Shown here: positions 21,797-30,374 of the stretch, piece by piece
Numbering within the stretch: position 1 is the stretch's first letter
Layout: every line of letters starts with the position of its first letter
Position numbers and translations under genes: made by a program
Source: an uncultured Bacilli bacterium
GTDB taxonomy: Bacteria > Bacillota_I > Bacilli_A > RF39 > UBA660
Assembly: GCA_934086955.1 (NCBI GenBank)
Contig: CAKOIN010000002.1
Coordinates: forward strand, 73,401-137,400
Direction: 5' to 3'
Length of the DNA stretch: 64,000 nucleotides
Notes under the pieces: model-generated
What the model saw: only the letters and a program-made list of their open reading frames with translations
What the model was told of the DNA's origin: nothing
Databases searched by the model: none

Positions 21797-22747
21797 ATGG
21801 CAAATAAGAAAAAGAATATTAAAAAGAAAAAATCAACAACTAAAAAGAGAAAAACTACTAATTCAAAAAAGAAGACGACTGTACAAAAATCAAAAGTTTC
21901 AAATAACACAAATAAAACTAGCAAAAATAAATCTAATAAAAATAGTGAAATCAAAAATAAAAAAACTGATAAAGTTATAAAAGAAAAATCTAACAAAAGA
22001 GAATTAATCTTTAATATAATAATAGCTGTATTAGTTATAGTTGTGATAATAAGTTTCTATTTTCTAATTCAAAAGAGAAAAGAAGAAGAAATTACTATTA
22101 AAGAAATAGATGAAAGTAAATTAGTAAAACCTGATAATAATCCTACTGATATTGATATACCTAAGAAAACTGTAAAAGAAGAAATAGCTGAATTAAAAAC
22201 AAAATATAATAATAATGATGTTATTGGTATATTAAATATAGATAATGAAATTTATACACCAGTAGTACAAACAAAAGATAATCAATATTATTTAAAGTAT
22301 TCATTAAGTAAAAAAAGAAGTGTTATTGGAAGTACATTTATGGATTATAGGTTAAATAAAGACAGTAAACAAATAAATATATATGGTCATAATCACAGTA
22401 ATAAAAAGTATAATCCTCCATTTAAAACACTTGAAAATTATTTAAAAAAAGCTTATTTTGAAGAACATAGATATATAGAATTCAAAGTAGATAATGAAAT
22501 TCAAAAATATGAAATATTTAGTATAGTTATTGGCGAAAAAGTTGGAACAGAAGAACACATGAATATAAAATATACTAAAAATAGTGATTGGTTAAAACAT
22601 TTCAATAGACTTAAAAATAGAAGCATATTTAAAACTGATACTAAATTAACTGAAAATGATAAAATAATAGTATTACAAACATGTTTATTTGGTAAATATA
22701 AAGGTAAGTTAATGTTAGTAATAGGTAAAAGAGTTGACAATGAGTAA
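21797..22747 (+). CDS. class B-like sortase with a ~70-aa polybasic N-terminal tail
   Basis: Motifs NIYGHNH and VLQTC plus a distal Arg. A K-rich low-complexity N-terminus is followed by a TM helix. Confidence 0.8.
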   Translation: MANKKKNIKKKKSTTKKRKTTNSKKKTTVQKSKVSNNTNKTSKNKSNKNSEIKNKKTDKVIKEKSNKRELIFNIIIAVLVIVVIISFYFLIQKRKEEEITIKEIDESKLVKPDNNPTDIDIPKKTVKEEIAELKTKYNNNDVIGILNIDNEIYTPVVQTKDNQYYLKYSLSKKRSVIGSTFMDYRLNKDSKQINIYGHNHSNKKYNPPFKTLENYLKKAYFEEHRYIEFKVDNEIQKYEIFSIVIGEKVGTEEHMNIKYTKNSDWLKHFNRLKNRSIFKTDTKLTENDKIIVLQTCLFGKYKGKLMLVIGKRVDNE

Positions 22748-22748
22748 A

Positions 22749-22773
22749 AGGTAATCTTATGATTATCTTTTTA
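22749..22773 (+). terminator. intrinsic terminator after the sortase gene
   Basis: Stem AGGTAATC/GATTATCT followed by a T-run. Confidence 0.55.
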
Positions 22774-22786
22774 ATTTTATAATTTA

Positions 22787-22813
22787 TAAAAAAGAAGTGT
22801 TTTATCATTTTAT
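22787..22813. repeat. 27-nt exact intergenic repeat, copy 1
   Basis: TAAAAAAGAAGTGTTTTATCATTTTAT is identical to 32616-32642. Confidence 0.9.
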
Positions 22814-27148: not shown

Positions 27149-27260
27149 AAAACCCTCCCAAAATCTAGCAAATCATTTTCGGAAGAAATAAAGATATTTC
27201 AACCAAACCCCCATTGCTTTACGAGTTTGCTATTATAAAGCATAATTCATTTATTGTCAA
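27149..27260 (-). promoter_or_regulatory. promoter plus conserved structured 5' leader of the adhesin gene
   Basis: On the minus strand: TTGACA-17-TATAAT, then the same conserved core as 25134-25243. Confidence 0.6.
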
Positions 27261-27363
27261 GTAATAATATATAAAATATGATTTTTAACTAAAAAAGTGA
27301 TTGATTATTGAAAAATTAACATCAAAATGATATCATAATATATATAAGAATAGGTGATAAAAT

Positions 27364-29907
27364 ATGAGTTTATCTGACAAAATATTTGGAAATTATACTA
27401 GAAATAATCAAAGAAGAATAAGAAATATGGTTAAAGAAGTTAAGAGAACCATAAATTATTATAAGAAAAAAGGTATAAGTAAAGAACAAATAAGTAAAAG
27501 AAGTAAAACATTAATGGCAGCTATAAGAAGTGGTAAAACTACTGTTGAAGATAATATTATAGAAGCAACAGCACTATGTTATTTAGCAGCTGAACAAGCT
27601 CTTAATATTAGCTTTTATGATGTTCAAATAGAAGCTGCACTTGCTATGAGAGAAGGAACAATAGCTGAAGTAAAAACTGGTGAAGGTAAAACTTATATAC
27701 AAATAATTGAAGCTTATTTAAATGCACTGGATGGAAAAGGTGTTCATGTTATAACTGCAAATGATTATCTAATTGGAAGAGACTTAAAAGAAACACAACC
27801 AGTATATGATTTATTAGGATTAACATCATCTGTAGTATATGGTAATGAAAGAATGACTAGAGATGAAAGAAGAGAAAGATATAAGTGTGATATAGTTTAT
27901 GGTACTGCTAAAACATTAGCATTTGATTATCTACTTGATAATACAGCTACAAAAAAAGAAGATAGAGTATTTAATCCAGAAGGCAAAAATGATAGTAATT
28001 ATGGAAAATCATTTAACTATGCAATTATAGATGAAGCCGATAGTATATTACTTGATGATGCAACAGTACCTCTTATTATAAGTGGTTCATATCCAGGTCA
28101 AAGAAAAGCTGACATTGGAGAAGAAGAATTTAAAAGAAGAAACAATTTAAATAGAGAAATGTATAGAAAAGCTATGAGACTTGCTGATACATTAACATGC
28201 AAAATAGAAAATCAAGATCAATTAGGAAAAGATAAAGATATAAGATTCAGTGAAGACTGTTTGTTATATTTAGATGATCAAAGAGTTATATTTAGTGAAA
28301 AACTATATAGAAAAATATATGGAAATGTAGATATATCTAAGCTTAGTTTAGAAGAGCAAGAAAACTATATGAATTTTGTAATAGCTGTAGAAAATTGTAT
28401 TTTAGCAAAGTATTACTATAAAAAAGGCGAACATTATATTTTGAGTAGTGTACCAGTAAAACCACATAAAAAGCCAAGAAAAGAAATTGTTTTAATAGAT
28501 GAAAGTACAGGAAGACTTACTCCTGGAAGAAGAAGAGGAAGAGGACTACACGAAGCATTAGAGGCAAAAGAAGAAATGCTAGCAGAAGGAAAAGGTTACC
28601 ATGTAGCAATTCAAGCTCCAACAGTAACAACAGCAACTTGTACTTACCCTGACTTTATAAATAAATATAAAAGTGGAGTAAGCGGTATGACTGGAACAAG
28701 TAATATAACTGACTTTGATGAAATATATAATTTACCAACTTATGAAGTTCCAAGCAGACTTCCTAATATAAGAAGAGATTTAAAAAACTCAGTTTATTTA
28801 ACTAAAAAAGCTAAATATAAAGCTATAATTAACGAAGTTTTAAAAGCACAAGAAACACTTCAACCAGTATTAATTGGTACTACTAGTGTAGAAGAAAGTG
28901 AAATGATAAGTAAATTATTAGCAGAAGAAGGAATTAGACACCAACTATTAAATGCTGTTAATAATGAATATGAAAATGAAATTATTGAAAGTGCTGGTAT
29001 GAAGGGCAGGGTTACTGTAGCAACTAATATGGCAGGAAGAGGCAGCAATATCAAACTTGGCGAAGGTGTAAAAGAATTAGGCGGACTATATGTAATTGGC
29101 ACATCTAGAAATAATAATGAAAGAATAGATTACCAATTAAGAGGAAGAGCTTCAAGACAAGGAGAACCTGGAAAAACAAAATATTTTTCATCATTAGAAG
29201 ATGAACTTGTTAAAACAAGAGCCTATGAAAAACTATTTGATTTAGCAAAAAAACTTACAAGAAGTCCAAACAAAGAAATAGAAGATGCAAATATTGTTAA
29301 ATATGTTGATAGATGTCAAAAAACACAAGAAGGATTAGAAAGTAAAGCAAGAAGATTAAGTGAAAAATATGGAAAAGTAATGACTAAACAAAAAGATCTT
29401 ATGTATGCTCAAAGAGATGTAATACTAGATAGTACAGATGTAAGAAGTTTATTTAATAAGATAATACCTAGTTATGCTGAGTATTTAGTTAATAATTGTA
29501 CAGCAGAAGAAATAAGACAAAATTTAGATGGATTGGTTAGTATAAAAATACCAGAAACAAGAAATTTAAAGCCATTTAAAGAGGCTATAGAAAGAGAATT
29601 ATTAAAAAAAGTAAAAATAAATCTTACTACAAGAGAAAGTCTAGATGTAACAAAAAAGAATATGTTAAATGTTGTTGATACATATTGGATAAATCATTTA
29701 GAAAGGCTAGAAGATTTAAAAAAACAAACATCATATTATAGTTTATCAGGAGTAGATCCTTTTAAAGAATATGAAAGAGCAGCAAATAAAGAATTTGTAG
29801 ATTTAAACCCAAGAATTCAAAGAGATTTTCTAATTTATGCCACTAATCCTACATTACAATTTGGCAAAGCTGAAGCCTATGAAATGGAAGGAGCAAAAAG
29901 TTTATAA
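27364..29907 (+). CDS. divergent SecA-family translocase ATPase (SecA2-like)
   Basis: Motifs AEVKTGEGKT, VHVITANDYL, IIDEADSILLDDATVPLIISG, GRRRGRGLHEALEAKE, TNMAGRGSNIKLG and RGRASRQGEPG. Several usually invariant SecA positions are changed. No C-terminal Zn motif is present. Confidence 0.8.
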   Translation: MSLSDKIFGNYTRNNQRRIRNMVKEVKRTINYYKKKGISKEQISKRSKTLMAAIRSGKTTVEDNIIEATALCYLAAEQALNISFYDVQIEAALAMREGTIAEVKTGEGKTYIQIIEAYLNALDGKGVHVITANDYLIGRDLKETQPVYDLLGLTSSVVYGNERMTRDERRERYKCDIVYGTAKTLAFDYLLDNTATKKEDRVFNPEGKNDSNYGKSFNYAIIDEADSILLDDATVPLIISGSYPGQRKADIGEEEFKRRNNLNREMYRKAMRLADTLTCKIENQDQLGKDKDIRFSEDCLLYLDDQRVIFSEKLYRKIYGNVDISKLSLEEQENYMNFVIAVENCILAKYYYKKGEHYILSSVPVKPHKKPRKEIVLIDESTGRLTPGRRRGRGLHEALEAKEEMLAEGKGYHVAIQAPTVTTATCTYPDFINKYKSGVSGMTGTSNITDFDEIYNLPTYEVPSRLPNIRRDLKNSVYLTKKAKYKAIINEVLKAQETLQPVLIGTTSVEESEMISKLLAEEGIRHQLLNAVNNEYENEIIESAGMKGRVTVATNMAGRGSNIKLGEGVKELGGLYVIGTSRNNNERIDYQLRGRASRQGEPGKTKYFSSLEDELVKTRAYEKLFDLAKKLTRSPNKEIEDANIVKYVDRCQKTQEGLESKARRLSEKYGKVMTKQKDLMYAQRDVILDSTDVRSLFNKIIPSYAEYLVNNCTAEEIRQNLDGLVSIKIPETRNLKPFKEAIERELLKKVKINLTTRESLDVTKKNMLNVVDTYWINHLERLEDLKKQTSYYSLSGVDPFKEYERAANKEFVDLNPRIQRDFLIYATNPTLQFGKAEAYEMEGAKSL

Positions 29908-30374
29908 TGAAAAATATACTAAATGTAATAAGAATTATCATAATTATATATTTAATTTTATTCACAGCTATAATGGTATCAATATATACAAAAAGGAAAG
30001 TATATAATGATCAGTTTCCAACTGTATTTGGCTATACATATTTAAAAATTGATAATGATTTATATGAACCAGATATTAAAAAAGGAAATATAATTATACT
30101 TGAAAGAACTAAAGCAATTGATGAAGGCGATTATGTAATGTATAAATACACAAATGATGCTAAATTTGGAAAAGTTAGTAAAGTTGATAAATACAAAGTT
30201 TATATAAAAGATGATAATGGAAAATTAAATGAATATGATCTACAAAATGTATATGGAAAAATGATATATAATAATGATAAATTTAGTAGTGTAATGAATA
30301 TACTTACTAACTGGATAGTTTTAGTAGTTTTATTATTTGCTGGAACAATTCTTCCTGAATTAATATTTAATTAG
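29907..30374 (+). CDS. SipW/S26B-like signal peptidase homolog, apparently lacking the catalytic Ser and His
   Basis: N- and C-terminal TM helices. It aligns by eye to SipW, with SGSMEP replaced by NDLYEP and THRI replaced by FGKV. The start overlaps the SecA-like stop (TAATG). Confidence 0.5.
   Translation: MKNILNVIRIIIIIYLILFTAIMVSIYTKRKVYNDQFPTVFGYTYLKIDNDLYEPDIKKGNIIILERTKAIDEGDYVMYKYTNDAKFGKVSKVDKYKVYIKDDNGKLNEYDLQNVYGKMIYNNDKFSSVMNILTNWIVLVVLLFAGTILPELIFN

Follow-up and report, generated by a model that had tools for sequence, protein, structure and literature searches.

A divergent SecA-like ATPase gene coupled to the gene of a putative SipW-type pseudo-signal-peptidase, beside a variable sortase-adhesin cassette, in uncultured gut Bacilli

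We analysed a stretch of 64,000 nucleotides (nt), hereafter the window, from an uncultured Bacilli bacterium (GTDB lineage RF39; UBA660; contig CAKOIN010000002.1, positions 73,401 to 137,400, forward strand). Five genes encoding a sortase, two surface adhesins, a SecA-like ATPase and a SipW-like protein were found there between dnaE and spoIVA. An earlier note on this DNA had proposed that they form a single dedicated export and anchoring system. The reading we favour, with some reserve, is that they are two separable neighbouring units, the first a SecA paralogue with a catalytically dead SipW-type peptidase and the second an ordinary sortase-adhesin cassette. All five genes were confirmed by gene calls and domain searches at the places where they had been reported (lengths in amino acids, aa).

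27364-29907, plus strand: SecA-like ATPase, 847 aa, with four SecA Pfam domains
29907-30374, plus strand: pseudo-signal-peptidase derived from SipW, 155 aa, assigned from alignment, AlphaFold model and structure search
21797-22747, plus strand: class B (C. difficile SrtB-like) sortase, 316 aa, assigned from a TIGR03064 match, PDB matches and catalytic residues
23622-25133, minus strand: wall-anchored adhesin, 503 aa, PF06458 (E 1.3e-15, 58.4 bits against a gathering score of 23)
25313-27148, minus strand: wall-anchored adhesin, 611 aa, PF06458 (E 3.2e-14, 53.9 bits against a gathering score of 23)

The neighbourhood was read in 12 lineages, namely the window, L101, L011 to L016, L104 to L106 and L108; the view of L105 was cut, its contig ending after dnaE, the sortase gene and one adhesin gene. 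The closest relative of the window was L101, with a SpoIVA 93% and a SecA-like protein 73% identical. In all 11 lineages with a readable interval the SecA-like gene was found 3' of dnaE, either directly or past inserted genes, and spoIVA lay downstream in nine of the ten readable lineages, the exception being L014. The order glyS-sepF-divIVA-dnaE-SecA-like gene-small protein gene-spoIVA-uvrA-mscS was present in the window, L011, L012, L013, L015 and L016, and from dnaE onward in L101, L104 and L106; L014 kept it up to the small protein gene and then diverged. The SipW-like gene followed the SecA-like gene in eight of the ten readable lineages (window, L101, L011 to L014, L104 and L106). The two genes overlapped or sat a few bases apart in all six lineages checked (window, L101 and L011 to L014). 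In the window the ATG of the SipW-like gene overlaps the stop codon of the SecA-like gene by one base (TAATG), in agreement with the translational coupling claimed before.

The cassette was found to vary at this junction. Between dnaE and the SecA-like gene, L012 and L013 contained the sortase gene with one adhesin gene, and the window, L104 and L106 contained it with two. At the dnaE-spoIVA locus of L101, L011, L014, L015 and L016, neither sortase nor adhesin genes were found and the SecA-like gene was kept. L108 also had a sortase-MucBP pair; its neighbours were polC and genes for glycosyltransferases and teichoic acid, and a SecA-like gene was not found within 8.5 kb of it. The order of the two adhesin genes in the window (23622-27148) was swapped relative to L104 (2138-5556) and L106 (10694-14228). 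On another contig of the window's species (L006, 137-3611) the 503-aa adhesin was replaced by a 486-aa allele, 63% identical, and the 611-aa adhesin gene was split into open reading frames of 471 and 104 aa, while the neighbouring SecA-like gene was 100% identical; an assembly error could account for the split. From the presence and absence pattern, the swapped order and the L006 allele, the cassette is a variable accessory island at a fixed junction. As a marker of one monophyletic subclade the cassette was ruled out, since the closest relative L101 lacks it.

That all five genes serve one dedicated pathway, in which the SecA paralogue and the pseudo-peptidase would export both adhesins and the sortase would anchor them, appears doubtful to us. 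Co-occurrence in relatives, a check suggested in the earlier note, was found in part: L104 and L106 carry the full set at the corresponding position, L012 and L013 carry a version with one adhesin and L105 shows a partial one, but the SecA-like gene occurs without the cassette in five lineages, L101 included, three of which keep the SipW-like partner, and the cassette occurs alone in L108. Since the same gene set is found in the same place in independent lineages, the clustering is more than chance. The adhesin and SecA-like genes share a short divergent promoter region, and the adhesins, the SecA-like protein and the SipW-like protein are all fast-evolving, which is compatible with co-evolution. 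The pilus sortase of S. pyogenes has a class-B fold. A dead signal peptidase of that species cooperates with the sortase in pilus assembly (PMC4049620). However, the signal peptides of the adhesins are short and of the ordinary Sec type, and the sortase is 83% identical between L012 and L013, out of step with the SecA-like (64%) and SipW-like (67%) proteins. The five genes are thus not one obligatory unit, given the five cassette-free lineages, L108 and the ordinary signal peptides. Some observations also weigh against the two-unit reading that we prefer. The cassette adjoins the SecA-like and SipW-like pair in six lineages (in full or cut view), and a functional link is perhaps underweighted by us; the partner is not universal, L015 and L016 having no SipW-like gene behind the SecA-like one; and P0351, a distant pseudo-SipW, is not beside a SecA.

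The SecA-like protein matched PF07517 (E 2e-74), PF01043 (E 3e-11), PF21090 (E 2e-57) and PF07516 (E 4e-23). NBD1, PPXD, NBD2 and HSD/HWD were all present and the SEC-C zinc finger was missing. The motor motifs, namely Walker A (GEGKT), DEAD box and arginine finger, were intact and invariant within the SecA-like family, and so was the N-terminal motif. The mean column identity in the family was 0.5-0.74 in the nucleotide-binding domains, 0.18-0.36 in PPXD and 0.22-0.38 in HSD/HWD. In place of the zinc finger the family contained a C-terminal motif, NPxLx[FY]GxY (29830-29904, residues ~823-847), followed by a variable acidic tail; the motif could be a partner-binding site.

The 113 family members listed (P0001-P0113), of which one carries the NCBI name 'DEAD/DEAH box helicase', showed at most 38% identity to any canonical SecA; the only homologue named at NCBI comes from a MAG (metagenome-assembled genome) with the label 'Bacilli bacterium'. 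Canonical SecAs across Firmicutes classes showed 47-56% mutual identity. The window protein was roughly equidistant from canonical SecAs, at 30-38% over the phyla sampled. It missed the cut-offs of the SecA models TIGR00963, NF009538 and NF006630 (548, 548 and 570 bits against 800, 814 and 862). It likewise missed those of the SecA2 models, with 507 bits against 930 for the aSec model TIGR03714, 502 against 1085 for TIGR04397 of B. anthracis, 367 against 1100 for NF012136 of Listeria and 421 against 725 for TIGR04221 of Mycobacterium. In a search of PDB the top match was C. difficile SecA2 (402 bits), with B. subtilis SecA1 at 401 bits. The description of this SecA as divergent therefore held, with at most 38% identity to canonical SecA and every SecA and SecA2 cut-off missed, and the protein is probably accessory.

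Among known systems it most recalls those with a SecA2 only (C. difficile SecA2, PDB 6t4h/6sxh; Listeria; B. anthracis SecA2 with SlaP; mycobacteria). These also have a divergent SecA without zinc finger and without SecY2, presumably use the housekeeping channel for a subset of substrates and are often encoded near surface proteins; C. difficile SecA2 was the top PDB match, though B. subtilis SecA1 scored equally. Unlike them, the window protein scores far under the cut-offs of the curated SecA2 models, and its type of SecA is fixed between dnaE and spoIVA and coupled to a dead SipW-type peptidase. To our knowledge no SecA2-only system has such a partner, and in the literature searched we found no report of a SecA2 linked to a signal-peptidase-like protein. 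The earlier note had not recognised the arrangement of a SecA2 with a pseudo-peptidase and a class-B-like sortase. The aSec SecA2/SecY2 systems of streptococci and staphylococci (TIGR03714) share with the window a SecA paralogue gene beside genes of a wall-anchored adhesin and helpers. However, no secY2, asp or glycosyltransferase genes were found within 10 kb of the SecA-like gene in any lineage read, whereas such genes belong to the aSec loci; the signal peptides of the window adhesins are short and ordinary and the proteins are not serine-rich, and the SecA-like protein misses the aSec cut-off. In its predicted working the first unit resembles a SecA2-only system, and it stands outside every curated SecA2 family.

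For the SipW-like protein, 162 representative homologues were collected (HMMER, full library), and 119 were aligned together with five family members. Of the aligned representatives, 65 retained both SGSMEP and THR[IV] and 54, the window family included, contained neither. In these pseudo members the Ser column was occupied by N, T, D, Y or L and the His column by G, K or R, with no conserved replacement; the window protein has Leu in place of the catalytic Ser and Gly in place of the His. The alignment thus bears out the suspected absence of catalytic residues. The window protein scored 24 bits against the NF046067 cut-off of 190 and did not match TIGR02228; a weak match to PF00717 (Peptidase_S24) was found in all five family members tested. 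A single-sequence AlphaFold model was unusable, with a predicted local distance difference test (pLDDT) of 56.7, and the alignment-based model (pLDDT 94.7) was used. This model contained an N-terminal transmembrane (TM) helix, an S24/S26 beta-barrel and C-terminal helices. Foldseek matched it to LexA C-domains, S. pyogenes SipA (4n31), SpsB, the E. coli signal peptidase and human SEC11C (E 1e-4 to 1e-2). SipA was among the top structural matches and gave the longest alignment (129-134 columns), at 13% sequence identity; the family profile against PDB sequences gave noise only. The modelled fold is that of clan SF (S24/S26).

The closest catalytic relative, P0292, was 36% identical, with the same N-terminus and the same ...FPELLFNK C-terminus, and scored 76 bits against the TIGR02228 cut-off of 52. 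Its gene lies on a 23,287-bp contig at ~7 kb upstream of dnaE; the longest contig listed for the SecA-like protein P0010 has this length, and we infer the two contigs to be the same. From this likeness and co-location, the dead copy was most likely derived from the lineage's own SipW. On the same contig (L109, 49-9354) two intact SipW-type peptidases (193 and 162 aa) were found together with a 1938-aa protein and small secreted proteins; no such cluster was present at the window's position. A 197-aa protein of L109 may have a TasA-like N-terminus, which was confirmed by no model. The giant proteins P0298 (3055 aa), P0303 (1932 aa), P0317, P0342, P0345 and P0370 matched residues ~23-123 of the dead peptidase in 5-15 stretches each, either as repeats of S24-like beta modules or through composition alone. 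In L015 (12649-14645) the SecA-like gene is followed by genes for 477-aa and 183-aa proteins, unrelated to SipW and with no Pfam family on record, which could be an alternative partner.

Two known proteins bear comparison with it. Pilus polymerisation in S. pyogenes requires SipA (4n31), a signal peptidase that is inactive (PMC4049620). Like SipA/LepA, the window protein has a signal-peptidase fold from which both catalytic residues were lost without conserved replacement, and in the window a sortase gene lies in the same neighbourhood. SipA, however, comes from the Ser/Lys (P-type) peptidases, whereas the window protein comes from the Ser/His SipW type of the endoplasmic reticulum (ER) and archaea. 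The window protein also differs in its second, C-terminal TM segment, in the low identity to SipA given above, and in its coupling to the SecA-like gene and not to the sortase gene, for it stays where the sortase is absent; the window locus has no pilin genes. With B. subtilis SipW and the archaeal/ER-type signal peptidase I it shares the N-terminal TM segment, beta-barrel and C-terminal TM segment and aligns throughout, and its closest active relative, P0292, is of this type and comes from the same organism group. It differs from them in the variable residues that replace Ser in SGSMEP and His in THR[IV], in failing the model cut-offs (NF046067 and TIGR02228) and in having no TasA-like substrate gene beside it.

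Rates of divergence were compared in two pairs of sister species, L012/L013 and window/L101. Between L012 and L013 the identity was 97% for UvrA, 96% for SpoIVA, 98% for DivIVA and 92% for DnaE, beside the much lower SecA-like and SipW-like values already given. Over all genomes compared it was 79-89% for GlyRS, 86-97% for UvrA, 70-96% for SpoIVA and 65-92% for DnaE, and in the same genomes it was 40-73% for the SecA-like protein and 31-67% for its SipW-like partner. The two proteins thus diverged 4-10 times faster than those of the neighbour genes. In the two species pairs the SecA-like gene had ratios of nonsynonymous to synonymous substitution rates (dN/dS) of 0.36 and 0.21, and the SipW-like gene had ratios of 0.21 and 0.19. 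For the neighbours the ratio was 0.02-0.09 in L012/L013, and in window/L101 it was 0.07 for spoIVA and 0.15 for the C-terminal part of dnaE. As a control, in 406 pairs of canonical loci the identity of SecA followed that of PrfB at about 1:1. The SecA-like gene is under relaxed purifying selection. Positive selection was considered as the driver of its divergence and not demonstrated, the gene-wide dN/dS being 0.2-0.36 and that of the highest domain, HSD/HWD, 0.44.

A GTDB scan with universal SecA motifs listed canonical SecAs of unrelated phyla only, among them L050, which served as seed for a canonical SecA family. Its proteins were 827-829 aa long, contained the SEC-C zinc finger and showed 85-100% internal identity, which fits the UvrA and GlyRS range of the genomes with the SecA-like family. 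They came from sporulating 'Bacilli bacterium' MAGs of 26.3-26.7% GC, where the gene lies in the context spoIID...hpf-secA-prfB. The SecA-like gene lies in the context dnaE-x-spoIVA with no prfB within 10 kb, and has neither the gene context nor the conservation of a housekeeping secA. The evidence from rates, from distance, from the PrfB control and from a canonical family in matching MAGs is indirect and speaks against a housekeeping role. We consider it likely that the SecA-like gene is a paralogue that exists beside a canonical secA.

The other possibility, that the SecA-like protein is the sole and far-diverged housekeeping SecA and the canonical family belongs to a sister lineage, is in our judgement unlikely. 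It would agree with the fixed core-genome position in every lineage sampled and with the complete set of SecA domains, the conserved N-terminal motif and the intact motor motifs. It would leave to be explained a protein divergence of 36% where UvrA is 97% identical, at a dN/dS of 0.2-0.36, while canonical SecA follows PrfB at about 1:1; no canonical SecA is closer than the others (30-38% over the phyla sampled), and the canonical family has the same GC content, the same NCBI label and sporulation genes, with an internal identity matching the UvrA and GlyRS range. Three results count against the paralogue, the first two being also in favour of a sole SecA. A canonical SecA and the SecA-like gene were not found on one contig or in one genome. 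For none of the 120 best matches of each canonical-SecA search was the 1.375 Mb scaffold with P0078 listed as the longest contig, so a canonical copy, if it exists, would be on another scaffold. Tetranucleotide correlation between the canonical-secA loci L098-L100 and the SecA-like loci was 0.70-0.78 and gave no link, an unrelated low-GC Oscillospiraceae locus (L057) reaching 0.77.

When P0014 (MGM9874891.1) was compared with the named canonical SecAs, none came from the same MAG. The longest contigs listed for the two families had no length above 10 kb in common, and the one length they shared, 9,358 bp for P0020 and P0155, was within chance for short contigs. The canonical SecA of Mycoplasma sp. 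CAG:776 is named 'SecA 2' at NCBI, which was taken as a hint only, the numbering being of uncertain origin. In one prevalent species the canonical locus was found on ~90-kb contigs whose breaks fall on an IS200/KilA-N insertion beside secA or no more than ~9 kb from it, and this would account for the rarity of contigs with both genes. In L098-L100 (8643-12454) a KilA-N gene, a 514-aa open reading frame and IS200-type (Y1_Tnp) fragments lay between canonical secA and prfB, and of the three contigs shown, two stop at the insertion or no more than ~1.3 kb from it.

A role of the pair in sporulation, for instance in export across a spore-related membrane, with the adjacency to spoIVA reflecting co-regulation, is in our opinion very improbable. 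The pair adjoins spoIVA in nine of the ten lineages with a readable downstream gene, and all carriers sampled encode sporulation genes. In L014, however, it is followed by arginine-catabolism genes and not by spoIVA, a 216-nt gap with separate promoter-like sites divides it from spoIVA, and its placement in a long co-oriented block of housekeeping genes is weak evidence. We know of no sporulation-specific SecA.

Under the preferred two-unit reading, the first unit (27364-30374) would be a lineage-specific SecA paralogue of SecA2-only-like type, translationally coupled to a membrane-anchored, dead descendant of SipW. Its ATPase motor, presumably active, would deliver a subset of preproteins to the housekeeping SecYEG, the use of which is suggested by the lack of a secY2 nearby. 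The client-recognition surfaces (PPXD and HWD) would change fast while the motor stays constant. The dead peptidase would have an anchoring helix at each end and its former active-site domain outside the membrane, and may keep a peptide-binding cleft on the outer face that serves as receptor or holdase for the emerging client. Judging from SipA, it probably binds a stretch of the client as this emerges, and leaves it uncut. The overlap or closeness of the two genes and their similarly raised rates fit a physical partnership of the two proteins. The pair keeps its place between dnaE and spoIVA throughout a family of spore-forming gut Bacilli that are uncultured, and purifying selection on it persists. 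We tentatively propose, as a possibility and no firmer than that, that the SecA paralogue and the dead SipW make up an undescribed accessory Sec pathway, in which the outer-face pseudo-peptidase captures the signal peptide or N-terminus of the client and both proteins co-evolve rapidly with the clients. These clients could include the neighbouring adhesins where they are present.

The sortase matched the SrtB model TIGR03064 (E 2e-34) at 119 bits, under its cut-off of 153.75, and all 15 of its PDB sequence matches were of SrtB type, the best being C. difficile SrtB (6kyd/5gyj/4ux7; 6kyd at E 7e-20). On these grounds its earlier description as class-B-like stands. The catalytic His (YGHN), Cys (LQTC) and C-terminal Arg were in place. 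A Lys/Thr/Ser-rich cytoplasmic N-terminal tail of ~68 aa is followed by one TM helix and the catalytic domain; this low-complexity tail is ~70-130 aa long across the window (21797-22000), L012 (5732-6130) and L013 (6297-6700). The sortase gene starts 8 nt past the dnaE stop codon in the window and 8-10 nt past it when relatives are included, a spacing that suggests co-transcription with dnaE.

C. difficile SrtB recognises (S/P)PxTG (PMC4155245, PMC5118464). It is the closest solved structure to the window sortase; in both systems the sorting motifs are xPxTG, neither LPxTG nor NPQTN, and the enzyme gene adjoins the genes of its adhesin substrates. The first motif position is F, I or V here, whereas it is S or P there, and the window-type sortase differs further in its cytoplasmic Lys/Thr/Ser-rich tail of roughly 70-130 aa and in its score under the TIGR03064 cut-off.

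The 503-aa adhesin contained a signal peptide, an unassigned N-terminal domain, a MucBP domain, a GGTGG linker, FPRTG, a TM segment and a KKKLM tail. The 611-aa adhesin contained a signal peptide, an Asn/Gly-rich repetitive N-terminal domain, possibly a beta-helix, followed by MucBP and the FPRTG sorting signal; its orthologues were found in L012, L013, L104 and L106. Both end in GGTGGDDP[DE]FPRTG, a hydrophobic stretch and KKKL, and they are the only open reading frames with sorting signals in the window. The relatives contained VPETG, VPNTG, IPNTG and IPDTG, which together with FPRTG give a class motif [FIV]PxTG, near the (S/P)PxTG of C. difficile SrtB. The FPRTG motif, called unusual in the earlier note, is indeed a non-LPXTG xPxTG motif, but it is less unusual given the [VI]PxTG of relatives and the (S/P)PxTG of SrtB. 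By their signal architecture the [FIV]PxTG proteins are predicted to be sortase substrates and to be cleaved there. The two adhesin genes, called convergent in the earlier note, do not converge on each other; they lie in tandem on the minus strand, and the pair converges on the sortase gene and diverges from the SecA-like gene. The adhesin dN/dS was 0.71. In L012 (9312-9932) and L013 (9424-9930) a small multi-pass membrane protein (PF06541, ABC_trans_CmpB), which is not in the window cassette, is encoded between the adhesin and SecA-like genes.

Further elements were found in the cassette.

22879-23552, plus strand: decayed remnant of the Rpn family (recombination-promoting nuclease / putative transposase) in three frames (TIGR01784, PF27070, three-frame translation)
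23580-23609, minus strand: terminator-like hairpin directly 3' of the 503-aa adhesin gene, a 12-bp stem followed by a T run (pattern match alone)
23623-23870 and 25314-25561, no strand assigned: direct repeat of 248 nt, 80% identical
27232-27260, minus strand: perfect sigma-70 consensus, TTGACA, 17 nt, TATAAT (pattern match alone)

The 215-nt divergent gap that separates the SecA-like gene from the 611-aa adhesin gene contains the sigma-70 site, ~85 nt upstream of the latter. The 248-nt repeat spans the common 3' ends of both adhesin genes (MucBP tail and sorting signal), by which the two genes are paralogues, and is a possible recombination substrate. The Rpn element, suggested before as a decayed copy, was supported in its C-terminal part, where a helix-turn-helix piece (23367-23552) matched positions 217-273 of TIGR01784 (E 3e-8, 33.6 bits against 52.1) and PF27070 weakly, and in its decay over three frames, all of which contain stop codons; it does not qualify as a full-length Rpn, and its N-terminal fragment had no profile support. 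The remnant was absent at the corresponding position in L012, L013, L104 and L106. The swapped adhesin order, the repeat and the remnant together suggest recombination inside the cassette.

In the second unit (21797-27148) the MucBP adhesins would be exported by Sec, cleaved by the sortase at [FIV]PxT/G and linked to peptidoglycan. The first unit may export these adhesins where they are present, which could not be its sole or defining job.

The window has ~25-26% GC and nearly all of its genes are on the plus strand. The majority of those with an assigned function are housekeeping or sporulation genes, and the list includes holA, mraY, spoVE/ftsW, a clpB-like gene, rnhB, glyS, sepF, divIVA, dnaE, spoIVA, uvrA, mscS, three rpoD-like genes, lepA, pilC, a prepilin peptidase gene, ileS, sigK, nrdD and obg. 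The housekeeping proteins cleared their curated cut-offs (LepA 962 bits against 534, GlyRS 682 against 312, SpoIVA 621 against 460). The window belongs to the core genome of a MAG from an uncultured, spore-forming gut Bacilli organism with ~26% GC; contigs with an identical SecA-like protein came from human-gut metagenomes, Hadza samples included. No tRNA or Rfam family was detected in the 64 kb.

At 38650-42478 three tandem RpoD-like sigma-70 paralogues of 405, 403 and 418 aa were found. The two that were scanned scored 305-333 bits against RpoD equivalog cut-offs of 555-572, and the tandem arrangement, of at least the first two copies, was present on other contigs of the window's species. 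In a 605-aa protein encoded between divIVA and dnaE (16984-18801), eight PARCEL repeats were joined to the N-terminus of a type IV prepilin; in relatives the same gap held other pilin-headed surface proteins (N_methyl with DUF285 in L012) or none (L011). The ClpB-like chaperone of 698 aa (8883-10979) matched the ClpB profile under the equivalog cut-off and from position 147 only, and hence has no N-terminal domain.

Accessory SecA systems are described from a handful of cultured pathogens, where the cargo consists of adhesins, S-layer proteins and autolysins. As TIGR00963 serves as a single-copy marker and the SecA-like family fails its cut-off, marker-gene counts may be affected. The sortase-adhesin cassette is ordinary, and its value for annotation is that [FIV]PxTG widens the range of class B motifs. 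With its constraint relaxed yet still real and its PPXD and HWD variable, this SecA motor offers a natural experiment on the parts that set client specificity. If its status as a paralogue is true, the SecA-like protein would represent an independent SecA paralogue family in prevalent uncultured spore-forming human-gut Bacilli. It would have a kind of helper not reported for any SecA2, namely a catalytically dead SipW, and this would be the second signal peptidase, after streptococcal SipA, to have been reused by independent evolution as a non-catalytic secretion or assembly factor.

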